Shown piece after piece: positions 19,574 to 50,958 of a stretch of DNA of 64,000 nucleotides (within the stretch, counting starts at the first letter, position 1; each line of letters opens with the position of its first letter). Below the pieces are notes generated by a model. The model worked only from the letters and a program-made list of their open reading frames with translations, did no database searches and was not told the origin of the DNA. The DNA is from an uncultured Planctomycetales bacterium (GTDB lineage Bacteria > Planctomycetota > Phycisphaerae > UBA1845 > JAFGLZ01). A program made the translations under genes and the position numbers. The stretch is from positions 71,997-135,996 of the forward strand of contig CAZUQM010000015.1 of assembly GCA_964622545.1 (NCBI GenBank), given 5' to 3'.

Positions 19574-19838
19574 AATGGGTTCCCTTGCTGGCGCTTTGGC
19601 TTCGGATGATACCAGCGTCCGAGTGGGCAAGCCATGGAGGTGCCTCGCGTCCGCTGTCGTCTCCGCTTGCGCGTGGGCTGGGCCGTCGGCCCGCTGAGAC
19701 GTGGCTTATCGCCGGCCGGCTCGATCATGGACGCCCGCCCGGGTAACCCTTACCATGAAGGTCGCTTCCGGGTGGGCGGGCATTGCGATGCCGGTCCGCA
19801 TCGACGCGACCACAACCTCCAACTCAAGGAGTTTCTCC

Positions 19839-23105: not shown

Positions 23106-23128
23106 CCTCGGAAGGAGGCTCGCGAACC

Positions 23129-26100: not shown

Positions 26101-27031
26101 TCCGAGCAAGACCAACGGCGTGATCCTCGCCCGCGGTGGTCCCGCGCACGGCTATGCGCTGATCCTGCGTGGCGGCAAGCCACGCTTCGTCACCCGCATC
26201 GACAGCAGTGTGCACGCCGTGGACGCCAAGCAGAACATCGGCAAGCAGTGGACCCACCTCGTCGGCGCCCTGACCAAGGACAAGCAGCTCGAGATCTACG
26301 TCAACGGCAAGCTGTCCGCCAGGGCCAAGGCCCCGGGCTTCATCACCGCCGATCCGCATCAGGCCATGGAGATCGGCTGCGACGACGGCGGCGCCGTGGG
26401 CGACTACAAGTCGCCGTTCGGGTTCACCGGCATCATCGACGAGGTCCGCGTCTACCACGGTACGCTGACGGCCGACGAGGTCCGCCGGCACTACGCCAAG
26501 CCCGGCGTCGTCGAGGCCAAGGACGCCGAGCTCGTCCTGAGCTACTCGTTCAACAAGGGCAAGGCGACCGACGAGTCCGGTCACAAGAACCACGGTAAGA
26601 TCCAAGAGACCCAGCAGGCCAAGGGCAAGGTCGCCTACGCGCTCATGTTCACCGGAAGAATGAAACGCTTCGGCCACCACGCGGTGAAGTATCACTGGAC
26701 GCAGGAGATCCCGCTGCTGGTTCGCGCCATGGTCATCACGGGGCAGACCTTGTTCGTCGCCGGCCCGCCCGACGTGCTCGACGAGGAGGCCTACGTCCAC
26801 AGCATCAACGACCCGAAGCTCGAGGCCAAGGCCGCCGAGCAGGACGCCGCCCTTCAGGGCCGCCATGGCTGCAAGCTGTGGGCGGTCTCGACCCGCGACG
26901 GCAAGAAGCTGACCGGATACGATCTGAAGCAGATGCCGATCTTCGACGGCCTGGCCGCCGCCGAGGGCAAGCTCTTCATGGTCACCACCGGCGGCGAGGT
27001 GCTCTGTCTGCAAGAGGCGGGTACGGAGTAG
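23129..27031 (+). CDS. Giant secreted protein, paralogue 2: methyltransferase-like N-domain + PQQ-like beta-propeller + LamG-like insertion
   Basis: ATG 23129 lies 23 nt after the paralogue 1 stop, with a ggaaggagg RBS. It is collinear with paralogue 1 (GLVVHVGCGDGKL, LPFVDNLVNLLIVE, DEWTHYMHDATGNAV, HHRCYRAKAT, DWPTYRG). An extra segment of about 180 aa (25990-26690) carries the concanavalin/LamG signature ...LTKDKQLEIYVNGKL...FTGIIDEVRVYHGTLTADEVRRHY. Confidence 0.7.
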   Translation: MMSQSKGVAPILAAFLIGVLGVSTAPAAQTPEATADAIIQATGFKGGLVVHVGCGDGKLLAALGTHQGTKVHGLEHAADKVARVRADLLAKGLHGKVTVQTWSGKQLPFVDNLVNLLIVEKGVAPARDEMLRVLVPNGVAYLEQGGHWAKITKPRPDTIDEWTHYMHDATGNAVAHDEEIAPLRHLQWVGSPRWSRHHDHMASMSAMVSSGGRVFYIMDEGSRASIVLPSRWALYARDAFNGTILWRREMGKWHTQLWPLKSGPAQLPRRLVAIGDTLYVTLDINAPLTALDAATGKRLRTYEGTKSTEEIICSDGVLFVQVNTSGEPWGADWADAERVRDIRKGVTDPRWSGAPRTIMAIRAETGERLWKADHKVVPLTLAADGKHVYLHDTQKIVCLDRATGKQVWASEPMPVWKKIHSWFAPTLVAYGDMVLFAGGSKMVPHRGGQDQVVGLCAKTGKKLWSADHPPCGYQSPEDLLVAGGLAWSGSTTSGGYDGIHRGLDPRTGEVKSQFGPDVETYWFHHRCYRAKATDNYVLTSRTGIEFLDLDKKTWIIHHWVRGGCLYGIMPCNGMVYAPPHNCACYPEAKLYGLNALAPSSPTRKQPMDVPEAGRLEKGPAYGKSDAAPAADADWPTYRGCKGRSGRLDKAVPERLTKAWSKKLGDRLTSPVIAAGKIFLACKDTHTLFALDADTGEKVWQVTAGGCIDSPPTYSDGMLLFGSADGYVTCLRASDGAMAWRYRAAPADRRLMAFEQLESVWPVHGSVLVHDGIVYCVAGRSMFLDGGLILYRLDAKTGRKLSQTMMDEQDPTAEKKTLQDRIQILNMPVGLPDILSTDGQHVYMRSQLFDFAGKRVELGPHSGDPRGQGSVQHGASAHLFAPTGYLDDSWFHRAYWVYGRSFAGGHAGYYQAGKYAPSGRILAYDNDRVYGYCRKEQYYRWTTPLEYHLFASNRQPPKVDVPRGGKGSVVRVGKTPSLNPKGKPVAVEAWVRPSKTNGVILARGGPAHGYALILRGGKPRFVTRIDSSVHAVDAKQNIGKQWTHLVGALTKDKQLEIYVNGKLSARAKAPGFITADPHQAMEIGCDDGGAVGDYKSPFGFTGIIDEVRVYHGTLTADEVRRHYAKPGVVEAKDAELVLSYSFNKGKATDESGHKNHGKIQETQQAKGKVAYALMFTGRMKRFGHHAVKYHWTQEIPLLVRAMVITGQTLFVAGPPDVLDEEAYVHSINDPKLEAKAAEQDAALQGRHGCKLWAVSTRDGKKLTGYDLKQMPIFDGLAAAEGKLFMVTTGGEVLCLQEAGTE

Positions 27032-36876: not shown

Positions 36877-37007
36877 TGTCCGGCGGGTTTGCAGGGACCC
36901 CGCATCCGGCCCTGCGTACCCAAGCACGAGTCTCGACAGGCGTCATCAAGCACGGACGATGGTCGTTGCGCCAACCTCTGAGGTGCAGGCTGCCTCGCTC
37001 ACTCGAT

Positions 37008-37175
37008 CTACTCGGCTTCGGTGTCTTCGGCCTCGCTCTCGGCGGTGTCGCGTTCCTCAATCGTGTACATGCCGTTCAGCTCTCCATTATCATTCTGGTC
37101 AGATCCGGGCGTGCAACAGCCGGGCATGAGAACGGCCAGCATAATGACGGCCACGAGCAGCATTCTGGCAGTCAT
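37008..37175 (-). CDS. Small acidic lipoprotein (55 aa)
   Basis: MTARMLLVAVIMLAVLMPGC with lipobox LMPGC, then an acidic tail ...ERDTAESEAEDTEAE. The upstream extension to 37277 is unlikely to be translated. Confidence 0.45.
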   Translation of the reverse strand: MTARMLLVAVIMLAVLMPGCCTPGSDQNDNGELNGMYTIEERDTAESEAEDTEAE

Positions 37176-37396
37176 AATCGGTCTCCTGCGGCCCACCGAT
37201 AGGGTCGTTCCTTGGGTGGCCCGCATGAGGTGGTCCGAGCGCGAGACACCTCCAATAGGCCGTGAGATGCTCGCCAACCCATCCGGCTTTCAAGAAATCG
37301 AAACGAACGCGCATGCGACGACGCGTTGCGCCTGGCACGCAGTCGCATTCCTCCCACTGCCGGCTTGACCCCGTGTGGGGGCCTCCACTGGGTGCA

Positions 37397-38278
37397 TCAG
37401 CACGACGAGGTGTTCTCAGGCAGGGCCGTGGCCGCTACTGTGTCCGATCGAGATCCTCGGCGACGGGTCAGCACCGTCATGTCGATGGGCTTGTCGAGCT
37501 CCACATGGAAACCGCGTGCGAGGGCAAGCGTCAGGGGCATCAAGACCGCAGCGAGAACGCTGTCATAGAGCAGGGCCGCAACCCCCTCATCCCAGGGCCA
37601 CTGCATGCTCCGGTAGATATGGAGATAGTTTGCGAGCCTCAATTGCTCAGCCAGGCACCCCAGGACGAAGGCCGTTGCGGCCGCCATGACGACGAGGAAC
37701 GCCACGAACGCCAGATCCTGCCGCCAGACCCGGCCATAGCTCGCCCGATGCACAAGGATGGCGCGACATTTCGCGACCAGGAGACCCATGAGCAGGGCCA
37801 GCCACACGTGGCAAGACCAGAGCAACAGGCGGCTTACGGCGAATGAGGTGGGCGAGCCGGATTGGCTCCACACACCCCACCCCAAGCCGAGCGTGCTCAG
37901 CAGGTAGACCCATCCAGCAATGCGCCGGTCCAGGCGCCTGGCGAAGAGAACGCAGCACAAGGCCAGTGGCAAGACGAAAGGAAGCGTCAGCACGGCCAGT
38001 GAGACGATCGTGTGGGGGTAGACCGTGCCCTGATGTGGGATCACCGACCAATGGACATTGGCGCATCCCGTGGTGACCAGCCAAACAGCGGCCAGTGCCC
38101 CCTGAAGCCTTGCCAGGAAGACATCCCACCGGGAGGGAGGTGGGCGTAGACGCAGCTCTTCCAGATCGAACGCCTCGCCGCACTCGGGGCAGCGGTGCAG
38201 CGTCAGCCCGTAGAGGTCGTAATCGCAATGGGGGCAGCGAAGGTGCTCTCGGACAGCGGCGAACAGCGTCTGGGTCAC
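37397..38278 (-). CDS. Zinc-ribbon + multi-TM membrane protein, unknown function
   Basis: GTG start. The N-terminus CPHCDYDLYGLTLHRCPECGEAFD is a CxxC...CxxC ribbon. It is followed by about 7 hydrophobic segments. Confidence 0.5.
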   Translation of the reverse strand: MTQTLFAAVREHLRCPHCDYDLYGLTLHRCPECGEAFDLEELRLRPPPSRWDVFLARLQGALAAVWLVTTGCANVHWSVIPHQGTVYPHTIVSLAVLTLPFVLPLALCCVLFARRLDRRIAGWVYLLSTLGLGWGVWSQSGSPTSFAVSRLLLWSCHVWLALLMGLLVAKCRAILVHRASYGRVWRQDLAFVAFLVVMAAATAFVLGCLAEQLRLANYLHIYRSMQWPWDEGVAALLYDSVLAAVLMPLTLALARGFHVELDKPIDMTVLTRRRGSRSDTVAATALPENTSSC

Positions 38279-38439
38279 GGCCGGGTCTCCAGCGGGACAC
38301 CGGCAAACCGATGGCGTTACTACGCTGATTCATCCTACGGATGGGATACGGACCGGACAACCGGTGCTCGCCGGGCACCAGCGGCCGGTCGCGGGCTGGC
38401 GGGGTGGGGGGTACGGCGGTGAGCAGCGTTCGCTGCGTA

Positions 38440-39006
38440 TCAGATCTCCTCCAGCTCCTTGGTCTTGGCGTCGACCAGCTCGTCGATCTGCTTCTCGTAC
38501 TTGTCGGTGAGCTCCTGCACGTTGGCCCGGCAGCGCTCGGCATCGTCCTCGGTCAGTGTGCTGTCCTTCTTCTCGGCGTCGATCTGCTTGTTGGCGTCGC
38601 GCCGGGCGTTGCGGACCGCAACACGTTGGCTCTCGGCCAGCTTTTTGATCTGCCCGACGAGCTGTTGCCGGCGCTCGCCGGACAGGGCGGGCACGGGCAG
38701 CCGGATGATCCGCCCGTCGCTCATCGGCGTGATGCCGATGTTGGCCGCCTCGATGCTGCGCTCGATGTCCTTCAGCGTGCTCGGGTCGAACGGCTTGACG
38801 ACGATCAGCGCCGGCTCCGGCGCGCTGATGGTGGCCAGCTCGCGGAGGTCCATCGTCGAGCCGTAGGCCGGCACGTCGATCTTCACATGCTCGACCAGGC
38901 TCGGGCTGGCCCGTCCGGTTCGAATGGTCCGAAGCTCCGTGCGGAAGTAATCGACCGCACGCTCCATCTTCTCTTCACACTCGAATTCGATGTCTTCCAT
39001 GGGCAT
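38440..39006 (-). CDS. frr: Ribosome recycling factor
   Basis: 188 aa. ...KMERAVDYFRTELRTIRTGRASPSLVEHVKIDVPAYGSTMDLRELATISAPEPALIVVKPFD...IRLPVPALSGERRQQLVGQIKKLAESQRVAVRNARRDANK... is a full-length RRF pattern. Confidence 0.93.
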   Translation of the reverse strand: MPMEDIEFECEEKMERAVDYFRTELRTIRTGRASPSLVEHVKIDVPAYGSTMDLRELATISAPEPALIVVKPFDPSTLKDIERSIEAANIGITPMSDGRIIRLPVPALSGERRQQLVGQIKKLAESQRVAVRNARRDANKQIDAEKKDSTLTEDDAERCRANVQELTDKYEKQIDELVDAKTKELEEI

Positions 39007-39132: not shown

Positions 39133-39188
39133 GCATGGTTGGTCGGTGGGCGGGCGGATCGCCCCGTCAGGCCCATCCCGGCATCCGT

Positions 39189-39262
39189 GTCCCAGTAGCT
39201 CAATTGGATAGAGCGTTGGCCTCCGGAGCCAGAGGTTGCAGGTTCGAGTCCTGCCTGGGACG
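39189..39262 (+). tRNA. tRNA-Arg (anticodon CCG)
   Basis: 74 nt folded by hand. Acceptor gtcccag/ctgggac; D arm gctc-aattggata-gagc; anticodon arm ttggc-CTCCGGA-gccag (anticodon CCG); variable aggtt; T arm gcagg-ttcgagt-cctgc; discriminator g. No encoded CCA. Confidence 0.9.
39227..39262 (+). repeat. attL: 36-nt core (3' half of tRNA-Arg)
   Basis: agccagaggttgcaggttcgagtcctgcctgggacg is identical to 47467-47502. Confidence 0.85.
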
Positions 39263-39275
39263 GTTTTCCAAAGCC

Positions 39276-39655
39276 TTAGTCCTCAACATCTTTCGAATCC
39301 GGCTGCAAGGCCTGGCGACCCGGAAAAGCCCGGATTTGCCCCGAGTGGGTCACTTTTGGGTCAGTCAGGTCGCCGTATGGCACGTCTCCAAGCATCTCGC
39401 CCTGCGTCTTCCGCGCCTTCCGGAGGTCCGCGTCCCGGACGCTCAGGTAGTACCGCTGCGTGGTCTTGATGTCGCTGTGACCCGCCAACTGCTGAACGAC
39501 GTGGATGGGCAAGTGAAGGGCCCAGTTGGTGATGCACGCCCGCCTGAGATCGTGAAGGGTATAGGGGCCGACGCCGGCCCTTCGACACATCGTCTTGAAC
39601 CGACGAAGATGGTTGTTGGCCAGATCCTGATCCGACGCTCGGCTCACGGACTTGC
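39276..39655 (-). pseudogene. Tyrosine recombinase/phage integrase, C-terminal catalytic fragment only (5'-truncated)
   Basis: ...LRRFKTMCRRAGVGPYTLHDLRRACITNWALHLPIHVVQQLAGHSDIKTTQRYYLSVRD contains box II HxLRH-like, GHSD and the nucleophile Tyr region. The core-binding domain and box I Arg are missing. The upstream part of ORF 39276..39908 is Arg/Ser junk overlapping the A2M frame. Confidence 0.75.
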
Positions 39656-40672
39656 GAGTATCTGCTGCGACATGAGCCGCAGCGTATCGACGACGACTAC
39701 GTGCTGGCGTTGGTGTGCAATGCGCTGTTGGCGATCGATCCCGCCGGCCAGAGCGCACGACCCTACCTGGCCCGATTGACGGCGACCAAGAAGACCTCGC
39801 CGAACGGCAAGCTCGTTTGGTGGGAGCAGCCCTCGAACCGACGGACGACCTTCCACGGCTCGGGCCGAAGCGGCAACATCGAGACCACCGCGCTGGCCGC
39901 GCTGGCAATGATCAAGGCCGGTGGGAATCCCGGCACCACTCGCGGCGCCCTGTCGTGGCTCGTCACCCAGAAGGACCGCATGGGGGCATTCCATTCAACC
40001 CAAGCGACGGTGTTGGCCCTCAAGGCGCTCGTCGCCGGGACCGGCAACGTCATGGGCGAGCCCCGTGAGCGGCGGATCGAGATCGCCATGCCCGACGGGA
40101 CCAAACGCGATGTGACCATCCCCGCTGATCAAGCGGAGGTCATGAAGCAGATCGACCTCGGCGAGTATCTCAGTGCGGGCGAGAATCGCATCGTGATCAC
40201 GGAGCGGAGCGACACCGCCCCGGGCTACCAGCTCTCCTACGCCTATCACGTCCCGGAGGTTCCCGACGAAGGCCAATCCGAACCGCTGTCGATCTCGTTG
40301 GACTATGATCGAACCGAGCTGGATGTCGGCCAAACGGTTCGTGCGACTGCAACCATCGTCAGCCGAGCGTCCGCGGTCGCACCGATGGTGATTTTGGACC
40401 TTCCGATCCCGGCCGGGTTCCGCCCGACGGGTGCCGATTGGGCGAAGAAGGTGGCGTCGGGCCAGATCGCGAAATACCAGCTCACGCCCAGAAGCGTCAT
40501 CGTGTACCTGCGGCAGGTCGAACCGGGTCGGCCCCTGACCCTGCACTACCACCTGACGGCCACGATGCCCGTCAAGACACGAGTCGCACCGGCCCGGGCC
40601 TACGAGTACTACGATCCGGACACGCGAGGTGAGAGCACGCCCGCGCGGCTCGTCGTCCGACGTCGGATCTAG
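39656..40672 (+). pseudogene. Alpha-2-macroglobulin family protein, C-terminal fragment only (5'-truncated)
   Basis: GNIETTALAALAMIKAG...ALSWLVTQKDRMGAFHSTQATVLALKALV matches the GGF.STQDTVVAL.AL motif of the thioester domain. The following beta-sandwich (LSISLDYDRTELDVGQTVRATATI...MVILDLPIPAGFRP) resembles the A2M C-terminal domain. The MG domains and the thioester CxEQ are absent. Homology begins abruptly at about 39656. Confidence 0.7.
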
Positions 40673-40929
40673 GAAGTTGTTGGTCCCCCTGTTGCATAAG
40701 GCCGGAACCGGTAGGCTCCACGTCGCAAGGGGCCGAATCTCATGCGACGCTGGAGGGACAAGTATGCCGGAGCGGCCGCCGTGCAAGCACCGTGCGAATC
40801 CACTCACACAACCCCGCCGCGAGCAAACGCAGTGCCGACCGGAATTGGGGTGGTCCGGGGTTCTAGCCGCCTCGTACAATACACGAAATGGCTTAGCAAT
40901 CTCCGGTCGGCCTCGGTTCAGGGGAACTC

Positions 40930-41763
40930 ATGATCGGCAGCACCGCTCCCGAGATCGATTTCTTTATGGCTCGGCAGGCGCTGCGGCACTGCGAGCTTTG
41001 TGAGTTTCGGTGTGGCGTGGACCGGCAAGCGGGCGAGGGCGGCCGGTGCGGGTTAGGCCATCGGCCTCGTGTGATTCGGTCGTATATCAGCTATGCCGAG
41101 GAGGTCGAGCTTTCGCCCGCGCTGATGGTCTACCTGGGCGGCTGCAACCTTCGCTGCCGCTTCTGCACGCAGGCCCCGGATTGCCACGAGCCCGACCGCG
41201 GCGTGGATCTGAACGACCCGGATACGTTGTCGAGTATCGATGCGCTCTCGGCCGAAGCGGCGTGGATCAATTGGGTTGGTGGCGAGCCCAGCCTCCATCC
41301 GCACGGGTTGCTTGAGGCTCGTCGTGCCCTGTCCAGCTCGACACCGTGGCTCCTCAACACCAACGGCTATTTCACGCCGACATGCTTCGATCTGGTCGAC
41401 GGCCTGTTCGACCTGTACGTGGTGGACTTGAAGTTCGGCCGGAACCAGTGCGCCCGCGATCTGGCTGGCGCCGAGCGTTACGTGGAGGTTCTTCATCGCA
41501 ACCTTCGAGGGATCTACGAGACCGGCGAGCAGCGGTTGCTCGTCAGACACTTGTTGCTACCCGGCCACGAGCGATGCTGCTTCGAGCCCATCGTTGCGTG
41601 GGTGGCGGCGAACCTTCCCGGTGTTCGGTTTCACCTGATGGGAAGCTACGTACCGGGCCCGACGGCGCTTCGAGATGCTTCGCTCGGTTGTACGGTGCCA
41701 CGTGATGTCCTTGCACAGGCCGAGTCTCGTTGCCGCTCGTTCGGGTTGAATCTGGTGGAGTGA
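40930..41763 (+). CDS. PflX-like radical SAM protein (island operon gene 1)
   Basis: N-terminal Cys cluster CELCEFRCGVDRQAGEGGRCG. Radical SAM CX3CX2C in LGGCNLRCRFCTQ. INWVGGEPS, LNTNGY, VVDLKF and LVRHLLLPGH match the PflX / PFL-activase-like family. Confidence 0.7.
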   Translation: MIGSTAPEIDFFMARQALRHCELCEFRCGVDRQAGEGGRCGLGHRPRVIRSYISYAEEVELSPALMVYLGGCNLRCRFCTQAPDCHEPDRGVDLNDPDTLSSIDALSAEAAWINWVGGEPSLHPHGLLEARRALSSSTPWLLNTNGYFTPTCFDLVDGLFDLYVVDLKFGRNQCARDLAGAERYVEVLHRNLRGIYETGEQRLLVRHLLLPGHERCCFEPIVAWVAANLPGVRFHLMGSYVPGPTALRDASLGCTVPRDVLAQAESRCRSFGLNLVE

Positions 41764-41767
41764 CATC

Positions 41768-41977
41768 ATGCCGCGTTCGAAAGACTACGCACGGGCCAAG
41801 ATAGCTGCCGACGACGATGTAATCATCAGTATCGGGCCGGACGGACGGGTCTTCTTCCACGATCTGGATCCTGACCTGCTGGCGGTCGCTCTGGCGCTGG
41901 ATCCCTCAGATCGGCTGATGACCGAGCGGATGGACCGGGCCAAGCTGCATCACGAAGATCAGAAGGAGGTGCTTTGA
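41768..41977 (+). CDS. Small protein, 69 aa (island operon gene 2)
   Basis: [69 protein letters not shown]. It starts 4 nt after the radical SAM stop, and its stop overlaps the next start (TGATG). The [12 protein letters not shown] hairpin resembles IEIRPNGEVKV of gene 5. Confidence 0.55.
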
Positions 41978-43551
41978 TGGCACAGCGTGATGCGCTGAAG
42001 GAACTGGAGATTCTGATCCGGGCCAGGTACCCGATTCTTTACGTGATCACTTGGGAAGAGGATCGCATCGAGAAAGGTATTCGGACCATCGCCGAGAGGC
42101 GAAACAAGAACGTGCTCACCTGGTCGGTGACGACCGGGTTGCGGAAGAGCGGTGAGGGTGACGGCGAACAACCGGCCAAGTCAGGTAAGCCCGCCGATCC
42201 GCTTCAGGCGCTGGACACGGTGATTCAGCACAACGATCCGGCGATCTATGTTTTCAAGGATTTCCACTTCTTCATGAACACCCAGTTGACCTGCAACATC
42301 CCCTACGTGCGGAGACTTCGTGAGCTCGCCATCGCACTGAACAACAGCTATAAGACGCTCGTGATCACCGCGCCGGTGCTTCAGATGCCGCCGGAATTGG
42401 AAAAAGACATCACGGTGTTGGACTTCAGCTTGCCGGATGCGACCGAAATCGATCGGCTGCTGGATCGGATCACGAACCAGTTCAAGGACGACCCCCGTGT
42501 CACGATCGCCTTGGACGATAATGGGCGCGAGCAACTGGTCAAGGCGGCTCTCGGGCTGACCTACAAAGAGGCGGAAAACGTCTTCGCCAAGACGTTGGTC
42601 AACGACGGCCGGCTCGACGGGGACGGTGTCAGCGCGGTCTTCGCGGAAAAGCAGCAGATCATCCGCAAGAGCGGGCTGTTGGAATACTACGACGCGGTCG
42701 AGGATTTCAGCCACGTCGGCGGACTGGAGAACCTGCGCGAGTGGCTCGATAAACGCTCGAGGGCGTTCACGGATCGGGCGCGAGACTTCGGCCTGCCCGC
42801 GCCGAAGGGTGTTCTACTGGTTGGCGTGCAAGGCTGCGGCAAGAGCCTCTGTGCCAAGGCCGTCAGCCGCCTATGGAAGCTGCCTCTGCTGCGCTTCGAC
42901 ATGGGCCGGATGTTCGGCAGCCTGGTCGGCTCGAGCGAGCAGAACGTCCGTCGCGCGATTCAGGTGGCCGAGAGCGTGGCGCCGACCGTGCTCTGGGCCG
43001 ACGAGATCGACAAGGCCTTCTCGGGGTCGGAGGCCTCGGGAAGCACGGACGGCGGAACCACGGCCAGGGTGATGAGCACGTTTCTGACGTGGCTCAGCGA
43101 GAAGACTTCGCCCGTGTTCGTGGTGGCCACTGCCAACAACATTGCCAACCTGCCGCCGGAACTGCTCCGCAAGGGACGGCTGGACGAGATCTTCTTCGTG
43201 GACCTGCCGACCGAGGCGGAGCGCCGCGACATCTTTCGGATTCATATCGAGAGACGGCATCGCGATCCGACCCAGTTCGACTTGGAGGTGCTGGCCGATG
43301 CCTCGGCGGGCTTCAGCGGAGCCGAGATCGAGCAGGCCGTCACCAGCGCCCTCTATGATGTCTTCTATGCCGACGAGGAGTTGAGCACGGAGGCACTGGT
43401 GAAAGCGCTGAAAGAGACCGTGCCCCTGTCGCGAACGATGAGTGATCAGGTGGAAGCCATCCGGGCCTGGGCAGAAGGCCGCGCGCGAAACGCGTCGGTC
43501 AAGGCGTCGCTGGCTCCGGAGTACGACCGACGGAAGCTTGAGCTGGAATGA
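41977..43551 (+). CDS. Ycf46-like AAA+ ATPase (island operon gene 3)
   Basis: aggagg RBS 7 nt upstream of ATG 41977. The N-domain [24 protein letters not shown] recalls Ycf46. The C-terminal AAA module has [13 protein letters not shown] (Walker A), [11 protein letters not shown] (Walker B), VVATANN (sensor 1) and [14 protein letters not shown] (Arg finger region). Confidence 0.8.
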
Positions 43552-43573
43552 TCCAGCGCGAAAGGAGACCGTC

Positions 43574-44029
43574 ATGAGTGCCGTCTGCATCCTGACCCCC
43601 GTGGTGATTGGGTCCTGGCCCGTGATTCAAGCCGCCGTGGCCGGCGCGATGGTGGCCATGGGCTTCAGCATGGCCGGCACCACCGAAGACATCGAATCGA
43701 CACCGGGCACCACCAGCGTGGAAGAGGAGATCTCCAATAGCGAGGTCCTCGAAGAGCAGATGGCCGCGGGCGAACGGATCGTGGCGGAGAAGGACGGCGT
43801 TCGCGTCGAGTTCGGGCGCGATCACCGCGGTACGTGCACGATCTGCATGAGCGGCGAGGGTTACTCCAAAGAGGAGCTTCGCGAAATGGGGCGTCAGATC
43901 AGTGCCAAGGTCGTTCAGCAGTATGCTTACAACAAGGTGATCACCGAGCTGAAGGAGCGGGACTACACCGTGGCCGACGAGCAAGTCGCGGTTGACGGCA
44001 CGATCAAGCTGCACGTTCGACGGAGCTAG
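43574..44029 (+). CDS. DUF1257 (Ycf35-like) protein with an N-terminal hydrophobic extension (island operon gene 4)
   Basis: aaaggag RBS. The N-terminus MSAVCILTPVVIGSWPVIQAAVAGAMVAMGFSMAG is hydrophobic. The C-terminus ...VVQQYAYNKVITELKERDYTVADEQVAVDGTIKLHVRR resembles the Ycf35/DUF1257 end (QKYA.NK...E.K....V.E.....G.I.L.VRR). Confidence 0.6.
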   Translation: MSAVCILTPVVIGSWPVIQAAVAGAMVAMGFSMAGTTEDIESTPGTTSVEEEISNSEVLEEQMAAGERIVAEKDGVRVEFGRDHRGTCTICMSGEGYSKEELREMGRQISAKVVQQYAYNKVITELKERDYTVADEQVAVDGTIKLHVRRS

Positions 44030-44033
44030 CGTC

Positions 44034-44240
44034 ATGAAACAGCCCGAGTTCGAGATTGAGATCCGACCCAACGGCGAGGTCAAGGTGACCGTCAAGGGCG
44101 TCAGTGGTCAGGAGTGCCTCAACTACGCCGACATGCTCGCGGAGATCGTCGGCAAGGAGGAGTCGCGCGAGTTGACGAATGAATACTACGAGCAACAGGA
44201 CCAGGCCGTCCGGATCGATGCGAAGCAGCGTCGCAGGTGA
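44034..44240 (+). CDS. DUF2997-like small protein (island operon gene 5)
   Basis: MKQPEFEIEIRPNGEVKVTVKGVSGQECLNYADMLAEIVGKEESRELTNEYYEQ... matches my recollection of DUF2997 (I.I.I.PDG.V...V.G..G..C......LE..LG......T.EYY). It starts 4 nt after the upstream stop. Confidence 0.6.
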   Translation: MKQPEFEIEIRPNGEVKVTVKGVSGQECLNYADMLAEIVGKEESRELTNEYYEQQDQAVRIDAKQRRR

Positions 44241-44303
44241 TCAGACACGGATCTAGCCTTCGGTGCCCGTATCCCCTCGCGGACCTATGAGGCGGGCTGA
44301 GCG

Positions 44304-45356
44304 ATGCAGTGTCCGAGCTGCGGATTCCAGAACCTGCCCAACCTGGAGACTTGTGCGCGCTGTAACAGTCGACTGGCGCTGGACGACGTCAGCGTGCAAC
44401 CCTACCGGGCGCAAGACCGGGGTCGTCTGTGGCGGCGGTGGCGGCACGTGTACGAGCGCGACGTCCAAGTGGGCCGTCGCTTGCGGAGTCTGTGGACCAG
44501 GCTGAAGGCGGGTATCAACTATGAGCCTATCCGTCAGCTTGGCGGGGGCGTGCCCTGGTGGGTCCGCGCGGGTTGGGTGCTCGCCTCGGTGTTGCCTGGC
44601 CTGGGCCAGAGGCTCTCCGGCCGAGCGCAACTGGGCTGGTATCTTCTCGGCGGATACGCCCTCGCCCTCCTGGGGCTGATTCTCTTCCTGTCCCCGGTAT
44701 GGTGGTTGTTCCTGGCGATCCTCGTGGGGATACACGCCTTCGCGATTGTCGATTGCCTCTTCTACAAGGTCACGTATGTCTCTCGGTTGCTGGTAGGCGT
44801 GACGGGCGTCGTGGCATTCATCGCGCTGCTGTACGGTCCCTATGCCGGCGTCGGATGGCTCATCAACGGTGTCGTCCGATTGGAGTACATTGGCGGCAAT
44901 GTTGGCAACCTGAAGGGTGGGGACGTGTTGGCCTTCAAGGGGCGCTGGTTCTCCACGTCCGACGAGTATGGTCCCGGAGACGTCGTTTTGTATCATATTG
45001 ACCGGCAGGCGGGCCAGGGCTGGTATATCGCCGAAGGCATGCTGCTTGACCGGATCCTGGCGGGCCCGGGTGATCGTGTGAGCCAGGAAGAGGGGCAGTT
45101 GCTCGTTAACGGTCATCCACTACCGGACGATTACGGCCTGCCGTCCCGATTGCAGCTTCCCGAGCGTCTCAATCTGCTGCTGTCACCGAATACGTATTTT
45201 ATCTACCCAACCGTTCCGATTGATGAGCCACCGGGGCAACGAGGTTGGCTGAGGAACGCGAAGATCCGGTCCCGTTTGAGCTGCGTGCATCGCCAGGACA
45301 TCCGCGGGAATCCGTCGATCGTTGTCAGCCCTTTCTGGAGAATCGGCCGACTCTGA
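44304..45356 (+). CDS. Zinc-ribbon + multi-TM + signal-peptidase-I (S26)-fold protein lacking the Ser/Lys dyad (island operon gene 6)
   Basis: N-terminus MQCPSCGFQNLPNLETCARCNSRL, followed by four or five TM segments. The C-terminus GGDVLAFKG...GDVVLYH...LLDRILAGPGDRVSQEEGQLLVNGHPL has the S26 GDxV and R(V/I)xGxPGD...xNG boxes. There is no SMxPT nucleophile box, and D-R replaces K-R before the GPGD box. Confidence 0.55.
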   Translation: MQCPSCGFQNLPNLETCARCNSRLALDDVSVQPYRAQDRGRLWRRWRHVYERDVQVGRRLRSLWTRLKAGINYEPIRQLGGGVPWWVRAGWVLASVLPGLGQRLSGRAQLGWYLLGGYALALLGLILFLSPVWWLFLAILVGIHAFAIVDCLFYKVTYVSRLLVGVTGVVAFIALLYGPYAGVGWLINGVVRLEYIGGNVGNLKGGDVLAFKGRWFSTSDEYGPGDVVLYHIDRQAGQGWYIAEGMLLDRILAGPGDRVSQEEGQLLVNGHPLPDDYGLPSRLQLPERLNLLLSPNTYFIYPTVPIDEPPGQRGWLRNAKIRSRLSCVHRQDIRGNPSIVVSPFWRIGRL

Positions 45357-45365
45357 GGTCCGTCC

Positions 45366-46157
45366 ATGGGAAACCGCTTTGAGCATCTCGAGTTCGAGGA
45401 TCACACGCCGCGGTCGGGTCGGGTGGCCTCCCAGTTCGACCAGGAGGGCGAGCTGTCGGCTGCTCCGATGGATCAGCATGCCTACCATGGGCGTGCGCTG
45501 GAGGCCTTTCATCGCGGCGAGTTCGACAAGGCTCTGCGCTATTTCACACGGGTGCTCGAGCTGGATCGTGCGTACGTGCCTGCTTGGGTCGGACAGGTTC
45601 AGATGCTGATCGAGCTGGACGAGCTGCGCGAAGCGGACATGTGGGCGGACAAGGCGCTCGAGCTGTTCCGCAATCATGGCGATTTGCTTTCGGCCAAGGC
45701 TGTTGCGAATGCCCGACGTAGCGAGAAGCGCACTGCGGTGGGACTGAGCGATCTCGCGATGAAGGCTCAAGGTTCTGGCTCCTATCGCTGGCTCGCGCGC
45801 GGAGAGGTGCTGCTCGCGTGCGGCGCGTCTCACGCGGGCACGTGTTTCGAGCGCGCCAAGAATGAGCCCGATGCCGACTGGTTCACGGCTGTCTGGGCCG
45901 GACGCATCTTCCGGACATATGACGTCCACGCCCAAGCACTGATCTGGGCCCGTCAAGGCACCGAGCAAGCTCCGGACCAACCCTATGCGTGGTATACGCG
46001 GGGCCTGTGTGAACGGGATCTGGCCCTGGCGAGCTACCGTCAATCCATGGAGCGGGCGTTGCAGCTTGACGAGCATTTCGCCCCCGCCCGGTTCGCGCTA
46101 CAGGCGCGGCCGAAAGTGTCGTGGCTGAGGCGTTGGCTTCGGCGGATCCGTGGTTGA
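45366..46157 (+). CDS. TPR-repeat protein (island operon gene 7)
   Basis: AYHGRALEAFHRGEFDKALRYFTRVLELDRAYVPAWVGQVQMLIELDELREADMWADKALELF is a TPR-like helical hairpin region. Basic C-terminal tail WLRRWLRRIRG. Confidence 0.55.
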   Translation: MGNRFEHLEFEDHTPRSGRVASQFDQEGELSAAPMDQHAYHGRALEAFHRGEFDKALRYFTRVLELDRAYVPAWVGQVQMLIELDELREADMWADKALELFRNHGDLLSAKAVANARRSEKRTAVGLSDLAMKAQGSGSYRWLARGEVLLACGASHAGTCFERAKNEPDADWFTAVWAGRIFRTYDVHAQALIWARQGTEQAPDQPYAWYTRGLCERDLALASYRQSMERALQLDEHFAPARFALQARPKVSWLRRWLRRIRG

Positions 46158-46183
46158 AGCCCCCCGCGACGGACGGAGACGTT

Positions 46184-47257
46184 ATGGATTTCTACAAGCT
46201 TGTCGACGCCGCTCGCCAGCTTGGGGCGAGCGATATCCACATCCTGGCGGAGATGCCGCCCTATTTCCGGGTGCACGGCGACATCAAGCCGGCCAAGGCA
46301 CCGGCCCTCGCGGCCGAAGAAATCCGCGCCATGGTCGCCGCGATCACGAACGAGCCACAGCGCAGTAAGCTTGAGCAAGACTGGGAGTTGTGCATCTCGC
46401 AATCCACCTCGGACGGCGGCCGCATCCGCATCACGTTTTACATGCGTGCGGGTACGCCAGAAATCTCCGTTCGACTTTGCGAAAAGGACATCGGCGGCCG
46501 CGAGTTCCTTCGCTTGCCTCCCACCGTCGATGAGGTCTGTCGGCGCAGGACGGGGCTGGTCCTCATCTGTGGTCCCACCGGATCCGGCAAGACCACCACG
46601 ATGAACTACATGATCAACATGATCAACAGCGAGCGCCGCGCGAAGATCATCACGATCGAGGACCCGATCGAATTCGTCCATCGCCATAAGCGATCCATCG
46701 TGGTCCAGCAGGAACTACTCACGGACGTCCGAACGTTCGCGGCCGGGCTGCGCCACGCTCTCCGCCAGAACCCCGACGTCATCGGGATCGGCGAGCTGCG
46801 CGACCTGGATACCATGTACACGGCCATCCAAGCCGCCGAGACTGGTCACATGGTCATCGCTACGCTTCACACCCCGGGCGCGGCCGCGACGACGCTTCGC
46901 ATCGTGAACGTGTTTCCAGCCGGTCAACGGCAGGAAGTGCGCTATTCCTTGGGCTCGTCGATTGAGGCCATCTTCTCACAGCAGCTGCTCCCGGTTGTTG
47001 GAGAGGACCGACGAATCCTCGCGTGCGAGGTCATGCTTGGCACGCCTGGCGTGAAGAACATCATCCGCGAAGGGCACACCCAGAAGCTTCAGACAGAGAT
47101 GCAAACGGGGCGCAAGGTTGGCATGCAGACCCTGGATGCCGAGTTAGTCAGGTTGTATCAGGAGGGATTAATCAGCTACGACTGCTGCCTCACCCATGCA
47201 CGCGACCTGGCCAGCGTGAAGGATCGACTTGACGGCCGCCGTGACATGACAGGCTGA
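46184..47257 (+). CDS. PilT-family hexameric secretion/retraction ATPase (island operon gene 8)
   Basis: ASDIHI..., LVLICGPTGSGKTTT (Walker A), IITIEDPIEF (Asp box), PDVIGIGELRD (Walker B), TGHMVIATLHT (His box) and GVKNIIREG. Size (357 aa) and motifs fit PilT/PilU rather than PilB. Start taken at ATG 46184. Confidence 0.8.
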   Translation: MDFYKLVDAARQLGASDIHILAEMPPYFRVHGDIKPAKAPALAAEEIRAMVAAITNEPQRSKLEQDWELCISQSTSDGGRIRITFYMRAGTPEISVRLCEKDIGGREFLRLPPTVDEVCRRRTGLVLICGPTGSGKTTTMNYMINMINSERRAKIITIEDPIEFVHRHKRSIVVQQELLTDVRTFAAGLRHALRQNPDVIGIGELRDLDTMYTAIQAAETGHMVIATLHTPGAAATTLRIVNVFPAGQRQEVRYSLGSSIEAIFSQQLLPVVGEDRRILACEVMLGTPGVKNIIREGHTQKLQTEMQTGRKVGMQTLDAELVRLYQEGLISYDCCLTHARDLASVKDRLDGRRDMTG

Positions 47258-47373
47258 TTCCGAGGGCTGCGTTTGCCATCCGGACAGCCTTGTCCCTCTC
47301 CCGAAAACCTCGTCCTCAGCGATGACAAATGTGCTCTATCTCCCCCTTGATTCGACGCAACATCATGGGCTTC

Positions 47374-47407
47374 GGCGAAATCGTCAAGCCAGTGAGCCGA
47401 TTTCGCC
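47374..47407 (+). other. 10-bp perfect hairpin near the right end of the island
   Basis: ggcgaaatcg - 14-nt loop - cgatttcgcc, 117 nt after the pilT-like stop and 60 nt before attR. There is no T tract, so it is not a classical terminator. Confidence 0.3.
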
Positions 47408-47466
47408 TTGGTGAGCGAAGTCGGAGTGGTGAAGAAGATGGTTGTCGAAGCGGTGGAGGAAACGTC

Positions 47467-47502
47467 AGCCAGAGGTTGCAGGTTCGAGTCCTGCCTGGGA
47501 CG
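47467..47502 (+). repeat. attR: 36-nt direct repeat of the tRNA-Arg 3' half
   Basis: agccagaggttgcaggttcgagtcctgcctgggacg. The upstream context (ggaggaaacgtc) is unrelated to the tRNA 5' half, so this is a partial copy and not a second tRNA. Confidence 0.85.
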
Positions 47503-47685
47503 ATTCGAGGTTTCCAGGAAACCCCCGCAATCCCCCGTGTTTGCAAGGCTTTCAGCACCTGCCGCATTTCGGAGCGTTTCGCCCGATGTGTCAGGAATGG
47601 TCCCCGATGTGCATGAATCGCCTGAAGTGTGGCAAGCATTGGGGCAAGCCGAGGAACCCGCCGTCACCGAAGCAGAAACCGTCCC

Positions 47686-50600
47686 TCAGTCCCTCATGGC
47701 CGACGCTTTCTCGGCTTCCAGACACATCAGGCGCCCGTCCTGCGTGACCAGGTAGAGTCGCCCGGCGGCGGCCGCGAGCCCGTCGAAGACCGGGCCGCCG
47801 TCAAGACGGCAGCGGCTGAGTGTCTTGCCCGTTCCGGCATCGACAGCCAGCACCATCGCGCCGCGCCGGCCCGTTAGCGCGGCCGTCGGGTCGTCGCTCG
47901 TGGCCGGGTCCGGTGGGCCCGCGACGAACAGCGTCTGGCCCGCCAGGACCATGGCCCGCACGCGAATCGGCAGCCACGCGAACCAGGCCGGCGGCTTGCT
48001 TCGCGTGAAGCCCCATCCCTTCGTCGTGCCCTGCGTCTTCGCGTCGAGCGACGGCTCGGTCTCGTGGTCGTCGGCGAATAGGAGGTAGCCCTTGTCGGCA
48101 CGGAACAGCGGGCTCTGGAGGTTCCGTGACGTGAAGACCTGAACGGCGTACGTCTTGTCCGGACCGACGGTCACGAGCTGGCCCGTCTTGGCCCCGCGAT
48201 GGGCGATGTAGTAGCCCGGCCACGTTGTCGCGTACGTCCAATACGTGCGGTTGAACCAGCTCGAATCCAGGAATCCCCACGGCGTGATGAGGTGCAGGCC
48301 CATTTCGCGCCGGCCGAGGCTCCACCCGCCGTGCTCGGCCTCGAGCGAGCGGATGAGGTCTTTCTGAGTCCGCACCAGCCAATCGCGTTGATGCTTCTCG
48401 TAGTCGTCCTTCGGCTCGGCGTCGGGAGCGGTATAGGCCTTGCCTCGGACCTGCATGGCCTCGCCGGTCTGCCCCGGGCGCACGTACGGAACCTCCTGCC
48501 GGCGCAGCGATCGGTCGAACTTGTATTGACCCAGATAGATGGCCCCGCCCTGAGCGACCAGGATATCCGAGAGCGCCCCCTCCATGTGATAGGCCGGGAC
48601 GAACGGTTTGCGTTCCGCGTCCTGGCGGGTCCTGGAGTAGGTGTCCACGTACGTTTCATGCAAGAGCTTTCCCGTCGCCGGGTCGAGGCCGACCAGCCGG
48701 ATCCCGCCGTCGAGGAAGCTCGACCGCCCGGCCGTACAGTACGCCACATCCTCGTCAATCAGCACGCTTCCGTGTACCCGCCACGGGGACTCCAACTGAT
48801 CGAACGCGATGATCTGGCGGCGCGACGGCGCGGCCCGGAACTGCCAGGCGAGCCGCCCGTCCGAGGCCCGAAGGCAGGTGACACACCCGTCCGCGCAGCC
48901 GAAGAGCACGCGGCCCTCCCAGACCGTCGGGGGCGAGTCGATGCGCCCGCCGGCCGTATAGTGCCACACGACCTTCCCCCGCTCGGCGTCAACGGCATAC
49001 AGCGTGTGGCTGTCCTTGGCCGCGACATAGGCCCGACCCCCACTCACCACGGGAGGCGTCAACCGTCCGCCGAACCGCGCCTCCCATCGCAGCGACACGT
49101 CGGCCCCGACCTTGCAGCTCGCACTCCCGCTGCGGCGCGCGTCGTGTCGGTACATCGGCCAGTCGTCGGAGTCCGAGACGTCATCACCAGAACGCGCTGC
49201 GGCATCGTAAGCCTCGCCACGGTAGAGCCGTGCGCCGTCCTTGCCCGTGCCGCGAGCCTTCTCGCCTCCGTCGGTTCCAGCGGCCAGGGCATTGAAGCCG
49301 CTGAGCTTCACACCGGGATAACAGAAGCACGGGTGCGGCGGCACGTAGAGGAGGCCGTTACAGGGCATGACGCCGAAGCGGCATGCACCGCGGATCCAAT
49401 CGTTCTGCACGTGCGGCTCGCCCGCGATGCTGACGAACTCGGCGCCGCGATTCTGCGTGATCAGGTATCGCTCGGTGGCCTTGGCGCGGTAGCAGCGGAG
49501 ATGATGGCCTGGCGTGTGCACCTCGGTCGGATCCACGCGCTGGGTCGGCTTGCCCGTGGCCAGGTCGTAGCCGGCGATCACATGCCCGTCCGCGTGCCAG
49601 ACATGCCCCCGCGCCACGAACACGTCGTGCCCGAGCATCGCCCGACCGCCGGTCGCCTGCGTCCAGAGCTTTCGGCCGTCCTCCGCGGCCAGAACGAGGA
49701 TCCTCTTGCCCGTGCCGTGGATGACCTTGCCGCCATGGAGGATCAGCGTCATCCTCCTCTTGCCGTCGGCAACCCGCCAGAGCTCGTCGCCGTCGGTCAG
49801 ACGCCGGCAAACGATGTGGTCCCTCGTGCAGTACACGATGCGTTGCGCATTCGCCGCCAGCGTGCCCGGAGCATAGAGCCCCTCGTCGACGCGCCAGCGA
49901 ACGCGGCCGGTCCCGAGATCGACAGCCGCGAATGCCCCCGGCTCGCCCTGGCCCCGCCTCGACGCCGTGCCCGCGAGCCTCACGACGAGGGCGCCGTCGA
50001 CGTGGACGATCTCCTCGGCGCGCTCGGTTCCGGCGAGCAGTGTGAGCTGCCGACCGGTCGCGGCCTCGAGAGCCAGAACAGGATCGGCCACGCTCGGTGT
50101 CACGTAGAGCCGACCGCCACCGGCGACGAGACGCCGGGGTACGCTCTCCGGCCGCGCGCGGAGCGCCCGGTTCTTCCATCGTGCGCCCCGCCAATCGGGC
50201 AGGGGGCGCTTCCAGAGCAGCACACCGTTGAAGGCGTCGCGGGCCACGAGCACCCACCGCTCGGAGAACGGCGGCTGCGTGATGCCCGTCAGTCCTTCGT
50301 CGATGACGTAGAAGATCCTTCCCTCGGCCGAGACCATCGCGCACAGGCTCGAGGTGTGCTCATGGCTGCGCGACCAGAGCGGGCCGGCCTTCCATTGCAG
50401 ACGGCGCGGAGGCCCGACCCGCGCGTCCCTGGCGACCGGATTGTTGCCCGCGTCGTGGAGGTGATGGTCCCACTGGTCGATATCGGCCGGCCACGGCTTG
50501 ACCGTCTTGACCCACTGCTCGCCTTGCCTGCGGCAGAACACACCGCCGGGGCGCAACACCCGCATGATCTCATCGATCGGCACATCGTGGGGCTTATCCG

Positions 50601-50958
50601 CCACGACCAGGTTGACCAGGTCGTCGCCGTACGGGAGCCTCGCCCCGCCAAGGAGCCGCACCGAGACGGGACCGTAGGTGCCCTGGGCATGGATCGCCGC
50701 TCGGGCCCGGGCCAGCTCTTCTCGGCTGGTGGCCAGGCCCTGCACCAGATATCCCTTACCCGCTCGCAGCGCGGCGGTCAGCGTTCCATCGCCGCAGGTG
50801 AGGTGGACGACGAGACCGCCTCGGACGCCGCTGGCGTCCAGGATCTCGGCCGCCTTCTCCGCGACCGATGCTTGCACCCATGCCGGCATGCCCGCCGACA
50901 ACAACACCAGTGCGCCGACGATCATGCGCCGGACCGGTTGCACCGAGAGAGTCGTCAT
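47686..50958 (-). CDS. Giant secreted protein, paralogue 3: methyltransferase-like N-domain + PQQ-like beta-propeller
   Basis: 1090 aa, collinear with 19839..23105: GLVVHLTCGDGTL, LPYGDDLVNLVVADKP, DQWDHHLHDAGNNPV, GHHLRCYRAKAT, CFCYPGVKLSGFNAL, DWPMYRHDARRSG, and the C-terminus RAMVLAGQTLFVAGPPD...GRLYLVTQDGRLMCL. The 962-aa + ORF 48199..51087 is its shadow. Confidence 0.75.
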   Translation of the reverse strand: MTTLSVQPVRRMIVGALVLLSAGMPAWVQASVAEKAAEILDASGVRGGLVVHLTCGDGTLTAALRAGKGYLVQGLATSREELARARAAIHAQGTYGPVSVRLLGGARLPYGDDLVNLVVADKPHDVPIDEIMRVLRPGGVFCRRQGEQWVKTVKPWPADIDQWDHHLHDAGNNPVARDARVGPPRRLQWKAGPLWSRSHEHTSSLCAMVSAEGRIFYVIDEGLTGITQPPFSERWVLVARDAFNGVLLWKRPLPDWRGARWKNRALRARPESVPRRLVAGGGRLYVTPSVADPVLALEAATGRQLTLLAGTERAEEIVHVDGALVVRLAGTASRRGQGEPGAFAAVDLGTGRVRWRVDEGLYAPGTLAANAQRIVYCTRDHIVCRRLTDGDELWRVADGKRRMTLILHGGKVIHGTGKRILVLAAEDGRKLWTQATGGRAMLGHDVFVARGHVWHADGHVIAGYDLATGKPTQRVDPTEVHTPGHHLRCYRAKATERYLITQNRGAEFVSIAGEPHVQNDWIRGACRFGVMPCNGLLYVPPHPCFCYPGVKLSGFNALAAGTDGGEKARGTGKDGARLYRGEAYDAAARSGDDVSDSDDWPMYRHDARRSGSASCKVGADVSLRWEARFGGRLTPPVVSGGRAYVAAKDSHTLYAVDAERGKVVWHYTAGGRIDSPPTVWEGRVLFGCADGCVTCLRASDGRLAWQFRAAPSRRQIIAFDQLESPWRVHGSVLIDEDVAYCTAGRSSFLDGGIRLVGLDPATGKLLHETYVDTYSRTRQDAERKPFVPAYHMEGALSDILVAQGGAIYLGQYKFDRSLRRQEVPYVRPGQTGEAMQVRGKAYTAPDAEPKDDYEKHQRDWLVRTQKDLIRSLEAEHGGWSLGRREMGLHLITPWGFLDSSWFNRTYWTYATTWPGYYIAHRGAKTGQLVTVGPDKTYAVQVFTSRNLQSPLFRADKGYLLFADDHETEPSLDAKTQGTTKGWGFTRSKPPAWFAWLPIRVRAMVLAGQTLFVAGPPDPATSDDPTAALTGRRGAMVLAVDAGTGKTLSRCRLDGGPVFDGLAAAAGRLYLVTQDGRLMCLEAEKASAMRD

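Follow-up and report, generated by a model that had tools for sequence, protein, structure and literature searches.

A probable degraded genomic island in a planctomycete tRNA-Arg gene, with a seven-gene cassette between its attachment-site repeats

How did seven genes of a planctomycete come to lie between a complete tRNA gene and a second copy of that gene's 3' part? The question is raised by a stretch of 64,000 nucleotides (nt) from contig CAZUQM010000015.1 of an uncultured Planctomycetales bacterium, hereafter called the window, in which a tRNA-Arg(CCG) gene is followed at once by what is left of a tyrosine integrase gene and, further downstream, by a cassette of seven genes on one strand that ends shortly before the repeated tRNA sequence. 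We consider it very probable that the block between the two copies is a degraded integrative genomic island that sits in the tRNA-Arg gene and is no longer able to move by itself. The first-pass annotation of this DNA had interpreted the repeat pair as the attachment sites attL and attR of such an insertion, and we uphold that interpretation on the basis of the exact repetition of the tRNA 3' part, the integrase remnant at the intact tRNA, the habit of this integrase's family of residing at tRNA genes and the drop in GC content within the block.

The target gene and the two repeat copies are as follows.

39189..39262, + strand: intact tRNA-Arg(CCG), the integration target (ARAGORN; full-length match to Rfam RF00005, 69 bits).
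39227..39262, + strand: attL, the 36-nt repeat copy that runs from the last anticodon-loop base (A38) to the discriminator (exact identity to 47467-47502).
47467..47502, + strand: attR, the displaced 3' part of the tRNA without its 5' half (exact repeat identity).

The only tRNA that ARAGORN calls in the window is tRNA-Arg(CCG) at 39188-39263 (+), and the Rfam model matches end to end over 39189-39262 with a standard cloverleaf, which places the discriminator base at 39262, in agreement with what had been read from the letters at first pass. Re-alignment of the repeat, which had been claimed to be perfect, gave 36/36 identical nt and no possible extension by even 1 base on either side (GTT versus ATT downstream), the distance between the copies being 8,240 bp. 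With up to 3 mismatches allowed, the 36-mer occurs only twice in the 64 kb, and the same search uncovered no decayed extra att copies in the window that would be a sign of tandem elements, while 0 of 100 dinucleotide-preserving shuffles contained a match to the 36-mer. Neither ARAGORN nor Rfam calls a tRNA at the distal copy, which indeed lacks the tRNA 5' half, as had been asserted. The sequence beyond attR, from ATTCGAGGTTTCCAGGAAACC on, would be the original downstream flank of the tRNA. Directly after attR lies a palindrome, GGTTTCC-A-GGAAACC (47503-47523), with no T-run behind it; this palindrome may originally have served the tRNA as a terminator or in 3' processing.

What could have inserted the block is indicated by the gene that adjoins the tRNA on its 3' side.

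39276..39632, - strand: tyrosine-integrase remnant, C-terminal ~118 codons, reading towards the tRNA (Pfam PF00589; XerC-like PDB structure 4a8e; P0361; family alignment).

The integrase remnant that had been reported near the tRNA is real, matching positions 105-166 of the 172 positions of the PF00589 profile (E=8e-9) and aligning with the C-terminus of the XerC-like structure, but the reported spacing of 14 nt has to be corrected, since the stop codon (39276-39278) lies 13 nt past the tRNA discriminator. The HxLR and GHS motifs and the Tyr nucleophile are kept in the remnant. By contrast, the box I Arg, the beta-hairpin Lys and the entire N-terminal half are absent according to the family alignment, in which integrase homology begins only at '...DQDLANNHLRRFKT' (~39632). 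Compared with P0361, an intact relative of 427 amino acids (aa), the remnant is 71% identical to residues 310-418, and it is the terminal ~28% of an integrase of normal size. The island is not mobile by its own integrase, of which only the equivalent of residues 310-427 of the 427-aa relative is left.

A word-indexed protein search returned 167 integrase homologues, mostly from metagenome-assembled genomes (MAGs) of Phycisphaerae/Planctomycetota, and none of the 120 listed of these 167 exceeded 226 aa. An exhaustive profile search recovered intact integrases 400-460 aa long, such as P0361 (427 aa) and P0366 (433 aa), in which the catalytic domain is found at residues ~208-424. A naturally short recombinase of the FimB/FimE kind, an idea that the shortness of the listed homologues had raised, is ruled out by these intact members. 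In IMG/VR, the family has only distant relatives, at 31-36% identity. The surroundings of individual members are informative in several cases.

P0361, 427 aa, intact: stop codon 16 nt from the 3' end of tRNA-Arg(ACG), opposite strand.
P0242, 133 aa, remnant: ends 27 nt from tRNA-Arg(TCG), opposite strand.
P0336, 224 aa: ends 4 nt from tRNA-Phe(GAA), opposite strand, in three contigs.
P0263, 220 aa: adjoins a tRNA 3'-half fragment only, opposite strand.
P0251 and P0286, 223 and 158 aa: open reading frames (ORFs) that continue into antisense tRNA sequence ('GLEPLTFGSVDRRSIQLSY').
P0254, 215 aa: cut by an insertion sequence (IS) transposase.

In the window the integrase occupies the tRNA-proximal end of the block, and the family is placed likewise at four other tRNA loci. 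An integrase gene just inside attL that reads towards the tRNA is the normal geometry of this family. Short of an empty site, the association of the family with tRNAs is the best evidence that an integrase made the insertion. Most database members (P0241-P0360 and P0361-P0496) are truncated to ~100-230 aa, including recurrent 133-aa forms that start from an internal Met, and integrase decay beside tRNA genes therefore seems widespread in Phycisphaerae/Planctomycetota.

The 3' end of the integrase gene also harbors a conserved stretch of DNA.

39343..39370, - strand: DNA block ACCTGACTGACCCAnnnnTGACCCACTC within the integrase 3' end, with two TGACCCA copies 11 bp apart (candidate arm-type integrase binding site).

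This block encodes the C-terminal tail of the integrase (LTDPK[LV]TH) and is nucleotide-invariant, third codon positions included, in five independent loci: window 39343-39370 (-), L092 4753-4776, L093 10586-10609, L099 4193-4216 and L102 1420-1443. The loci that carry it differ strongly in composition, with 62-67% GC in the window and a visibly AT-rich sequence in L099 and L102. The TGACCCA motif block was detected in 6 integrase-family loci versus 0 of 98 other loci, and the spacing of the two TGACCCA copies amounts to one helical turn. The block may serve, within the gene itself, as an arm-type site to which the integrase binds; the attR side has neither a TGACCCA motif nor any other arm-like repeat. 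This integrase family is found systematically at tRNA-Arg and tRNA-Phe genes of Phycisphaerae/Planctomycetota, and the invariant 3' block constitutes a testable candidate for its arm site.

Immediately beyond the integrase remnant, a second truncated gene begins.

39701..40672, + strand: 3' fragment of a gene of the alpha-2-macroglobulin (A2M) family, encoding the TED end, MG10 and the receptor-binding domain (Pfam PF07678, profile positions 201-310 of 312; PF17973; PF07677).
39633..39671, no strand: probable junction left by a deletion, with the integrase remnant on one side and the A2M fragment on the other (integrase homology ends at ~39632, A2M homology starts by ~39671).

The A2M fragment aligns to residues 1151-1430 of human A2M (1442 aa) with the thioester region absent; it represents the last ~20% of the gene, and no further A2M gene is present in the window. 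Because the integrase and the A2M gene both lack their 5' part and the missing ends face each other across at most 39 nt, we infer that one internal deletion probably accounts for both truncations. Such a deletion would have removed the 5' ~72% of the integrase gene (~0.9 kb) along with the 5' ~80% of the A2M gene (at least ~3.5 kb) and anything that lay in between, in which case the original element would have been at least ~4.5 kb larger, and it would have fixed the island in place.

The base composition of the block departs from that of its surroundings, with a GC content of 62.3% in the block (39264-47466) compared to 66.6% in the rest of the window and 67.0% in both 16-20-kb flanks, and the step falls at the repeat boundaries. 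GC content at third codon positions (GC3), weighted by length, was 0.77 over 7 ORFs of the island versus 0.86 over 34 other ORFs (Mann-Whitney p=5e-4); the island set consists of the A2M fragment and every cassette gene except that for the 82-aa DUF2997 protein, which was under the size cut-off. The step in composition is real, but moderate: the contrast that the first-pass annotation had drawn between block and flanks holds for GC and GC3 alike, whereas its description of the flanking genes as almost purely G/C-ending was overstated in view of their GC3.

On the basis of these features we propose that an element with a tyrosine integrase of ~430 aa, whose attP carried the same sequence as the final 36 nt of the tRNA, would have recombined with the 3' part of tRNA-Arg(CCG). 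This recombination would have rebuilt an intact tRNA at attL (39189-39262) and displaced the original 3' segment by 8,240 bp to attR (47467-47502), with the integrase gene in the lambda-style position, immediately inside attL and transcribed towards it. The cassette at 40930-47257 would have survived the subsequent losses, presumably kept as useful to the host. The direction and the time of the transfer are, like the deletion, what we infer.

Integration into a tRNA gene followed by decay of the integrase is textbook biology. Williams' work of 2002 in Nucleic Acids Res on the sublocation of att sites in tRNA genes reportedly describes an identity block that usually extends from the anticodon loop to the discriminator. 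Islands and prophages with tRNA-targeting tyrosine integrases resemble the locus in the window in that the target is the tRNA 3' part, with a block from anticodon loop to discriminator, in that an intact tRNA is restored at one end while a 3' fragment stays behind at the other, and in that an integrase gene adjoins the tRNA and reads towards it within DNA of atypical composition. They differ from it because here the integrase is cut to its last ~118 codons, only 8.2 kb are left and genes for an excisionase, phage functions, replication or transfer are all missing. Anchored or decayed elements of the pathogenicity-island type, with cryptic or truncated integrases, are known from the genomic-island literature and likewise combine a lost integrase function and a fixed island with intact cargo; in the present case, however, the island resides in an uncultured Phycisphaerae-like planctomycete and its cargo is neither a virulence nor a resistance nor a recognised defence module. 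As an island the locus adds little; only its cargo and the DNA block conserved in the tail of the integrase go beyond the ordinary.

Several observations weigh against the interpretation as an inserted island. In the empty-site (attB) form, the tRNA would be followed directly by ATTCGAGGTTTCC, and the exact empty-site pattern (anticodon arm, tRNA 3' half and ATTCGAGG) is absent from the GTDB species representatives and the JGI metagenomes, where no close relative was found either. No close relative has the right flank, the best right-flank homologue being 66% identical, a member of a paralogous PQQ/methyltransferase family and not syntenic; the nearest relatives that can be anchored on frr have unrelated genes instead of a tRNA beside frr, and their wider neighbourhood is rearranged, so that they are unsuitable as an empty-site comparison. 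In addition, no excisionase, replication, phage or conjugation genes are left to tell the type of element, the shift in composition is only moderate, and the window stems from a metagenome-assembled contig. Searches of genome contigs for the 1090-aa protein of the right flank gave pattern matches, none of which was confirmed. The frr-anchored relatives (RRF 77-93% identical) have the side of the Bat operon in common with the window and carry no right-flank genes. In favour of an island, its genes are all missing from the 10 kb around frr in the nearest of these relatives, and homologues of its cargo occur in unrelated chromosomal contexts in other metagenome contigs.

With junctions read from an assembly, one may ask if an empty-site chromosome and a separate element with the same 36-mer (circular, or from another organism) were joined through the repeat by the assembler. 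The source is a MAG-type contig whose proteins were found only in NCBI and Logan, the GC content of the block differs from its surroundings, and the Logan contigs of the same organism break in or beside the repeat: L011 reaches 30 nt into attR before it stops at 47473, and L001 stops at 39224, 3 nt short of attL. Such breaks do not discriminate, however, because a k=31 graph is expected to break at any 36-nt repeat or at shared tRNA sequence, and they are silent on the occupancy of the site. Moreover, a false insertion would take two independent mis-joins, the truncated integrase could not itself have given rise to a free circular form, and assemblers that yield 163-kb contigs work with k-mers of more than 36 nt, for which spanning reads must have existed. 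We therefore regard an artefact of this kind as very improbable. An origin without any integrase, in which the 36-mer is the leftover of a local duplication or rearrangement, the cassette is native and the integrase fragment is an unrelated relic, would fit the rearranged frr neighbourhood and the occurrence of the cassette elsewhere in ordinary chromosomal contexts without integrases. Yet it leaves unaccounted for that the repeat spans exactly the part from anticodon loop to discriminator, which is the usual extent of att sites in tRNAs, that members of the integrase family repeatedly read into tRNA 3' ends, and that all seven ORFs scored between the repeats share the lowered GC3, and we give it slightly less credence still than the artefact.

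A different question is if the island, though unable to move by itself, is mobilisable in trans by an intact paralogous integrase encoded elsewhere, as an integrative mobilisable element. The integrase family is abundant in Phycisphaerae/Planctomycetota, with intact as well as decayed members, the TGACCCA-repeat block beside attL has been retained and the repeats are undecayed at 36/36 nt. The attL copy, however, is part of a functional tRNA and would be conserved regardless of mobility, so the perfect repeat says little about mobility at present; furthermore, no intact integrase of any kind is seen in the window and the attR side is devoid of the TGACCCA motif or an arm-like repeat. Mobilisation in trans thus seems unlikely to us, if less so than the two alternatives above, and we return to the island as a degraded insertion in tRNA-Arg whose cargo is apparently intact.

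This cargo, at 40930-47257, comprises seven apparently intact genes on one strand.

40930..41763, + strand: cassette gene 1, radical SAM enzyme with the cluster motif CNLRCRFC (CxxxCxxC) (Pfam PF04055).
41974..43551, + strand: cassette gene 2, classical-clade AAA+ ATPase of 525 aa with an N-terminal domain of ~260 aa (Pfam PF00004; Walker A and B present).
43574..44029, + strand: cassette gene 3, DUF1257 protein with an N-terminal hydrophobic segment (Pfam PF06868; alignment A3).
43992..44240, + strand: cassette gene 4, DUF2997 protein of 82 aa (Pfam PF11211; phrog_23133); its true start is probably downstream of 43992.
44304..45356, + strand: cassette gene 5, protein with a Zn-ribbon, membrane segments and a signal-peptidase-I-like (S26) domain (Pfam and NCBIfam matches below cut-off; PDB signal peptidase I profile, E~1e-4).
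45366..46157, + strand: cassette gene 6, TPR protein (Pfam TPR families; position kept in related loci).
46121..47257, + strand: cassette gene 7, PilT/PilU-family hexameric ATPase (NCBIfam TIGR01420, 376.8 bits versus a cut-off of 319; Pfam T2SSE).

Between gene 7 and attR there is a spacer of 209 nt. The match of the AAA protein to phrog_8638 extends along its entire length (E=6e-161), and the PHROGs matches of the island proteins (AAA, DUF1257, DUF2997, PilT-like and radical SAM) belong to the unknown-function, 'other' or auxiliary-gene categories, with no phage structural, packaging or lysis families among them. Likewise, no relaxase, coupling protein or type IV secretion genes were matched in Pfam or NCBIfam; the PilT-like ATPase passes the PilT/PilU cut-off, whereas its scores for VirB11, TrbB and TraJ are far under theirs. 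The DUF1257 profile had no significant match among PDB sequences. For the S26-like protein, alignment of 13 homologues (A4) revealed no invariant Ser or Lys, and its peptidase-like domain is probably catalytically inactive on this evidence; the equivalent of the signal-peptidase motif 'KR..G.PGD' reads 'DR..G.PGD' in this protein. PADLOC-DB v2 recognised no full known defence system. It gave partial IetA-type matches to the AAA module and weak N-terminal pVip (viperin-type) matches to the cluster region of the radical SAM protein, and no match for 5 of the 8 island proteins scanned (4 of the 7 cassette proteins and the A2M fragment). Our literature search turned up no paper describing the cassette.

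The cassette is nevertheless not confined to this island. More than 500 relatives of the AAA protein at 60-66% identity are found in JGI metagenomes, and we compared gene order at the 80 best of these loci. The order radical SAM, AAA, DUF1257, DUF2997, S26-like, TPR, PilT-like is held wherever the contig is long enough: at least 10 of the 80 loci have all seven genes, many have six (with no detectable S26-like gene), and a subset has the AAA, TPR and PilT-like genes only, with the radical SAM gene still preceding the AAA gene at most of the related loci. None of the 80 loci contains the A2M fragment or a member of this integrase family, no integrases or att repeats were found around the cassette elsewhere, and tRNAs are mostly not adjacent to it in related loci. 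In two unrelated metagenome loci the cassette ends ~250-570 bp from a tRNA, namely tRNA-Leu(GAG) at 15752-15835 of L016 and tRNA-Phe(GAA) at 16202-16277 of L020; in L016, the only locus with a suitable geometry, there is no tRNA-derived att-like repeat. The three closest loci are flanked by unrelated ordinary genes (DUF1800/DUF1501, kinase-WD40, PD40, FG-GAP, cyclophilin and PolX). Comparison of cassette loci with the window by tblastx yielded spurious matches at this GC content. As the cassette is kept together with unrelated flanks, it behaves as a self-contained unit; it is such a unit in varied contexts and lies here, unusually, between att sites. As cargo between att sites, it could be transferred horizontally as a unit.

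Parts of the cassette recur beyond these loci. Full-length homologues of the AAA ATPase occur in 160 phage records, including L104 (Mycobacterium phage YungJamal). In Rhizobium phage RHph_I4 (L103, MN988552.1, 60899-64221), an AAA ATPase, a hypothetical gene and annotated DUF1257 and DUF2997 genes follow one another in this order. The cassette AAA protein may be related to cyanobacterial Ycf46. Ycf46 is a KaiC-interacting AAA ATPase encoded in a stress-induced three-gene operon (bioRxiv 10.1101/2025.07.21.665879), and cyanobacteria also possess a duf2997-ycf35(DUF1257)-fed7 cluster (PMC4284462). In contrast to the AAA-DUF1257-DUF2997 triads of phages and cyanobacteria, the triad of the window is embedded in a larger fixed cassette with radical SAM, S26-like, TPR and PilT-like genes. 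One function may be common to the cassette, the triads of phages and the ycf35/DUF2997 cluster of cyanobacteria.

The partial PADLOC matches call for comparison with IetAS, an anti-phage system composed of the AAA ATPase IetA and the serine protease IetS. The AAA domain of the cassette matches IetA models (PADLOC PDLC02196, 83 bits over 267-498; NCBIfam IteA, 71 bits) and a peptidase-like protein is encoded nearby, but the 71 bits compare to a cut-off of 510 bits and the match covers only the generic AAA module. Furthermore, the neighbour in the cassette is S26-like rather than subtilisin-like and is without invariant Ser/Lys, and no IetS match was found. We would suggest, with some hesitation and rather as a guess, that the cargo is an undescribed, horizontally mobile and membrane-associated seven-gene system in which two ATPases are arranged around the AAA-DUF1257-DUF2997 triad, that the locus is a triad system caught while being moved by a tRNA-targeting integrase, and that the system might act in a conflict or stress response and not in housekeeping.

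Two further observations concern the DNA outside the island. Three large paralogues with an N-terminal methyltransferase and PQQ-like beta-propellers are encoded at 19698-23105, 22700-27031 and 47686-50958, and this methyltransferase/PQQ family is very large in Planctomycetota metagenomes, with 3237 matches at E<=1e-50. A segment of ~1.56 kb (36877-38440) lies between the TPR/BatD operon and frr and contains an ORF of 293 aa (37397-38278, - strand) with an island-like GC3 of 0.77 and no Pfam or PHROG match. All frr-anchored relatives are without this segment, frr being ~50-170 bp from the TPR gene in their genomes, and the segment may be a second, separate insertion.

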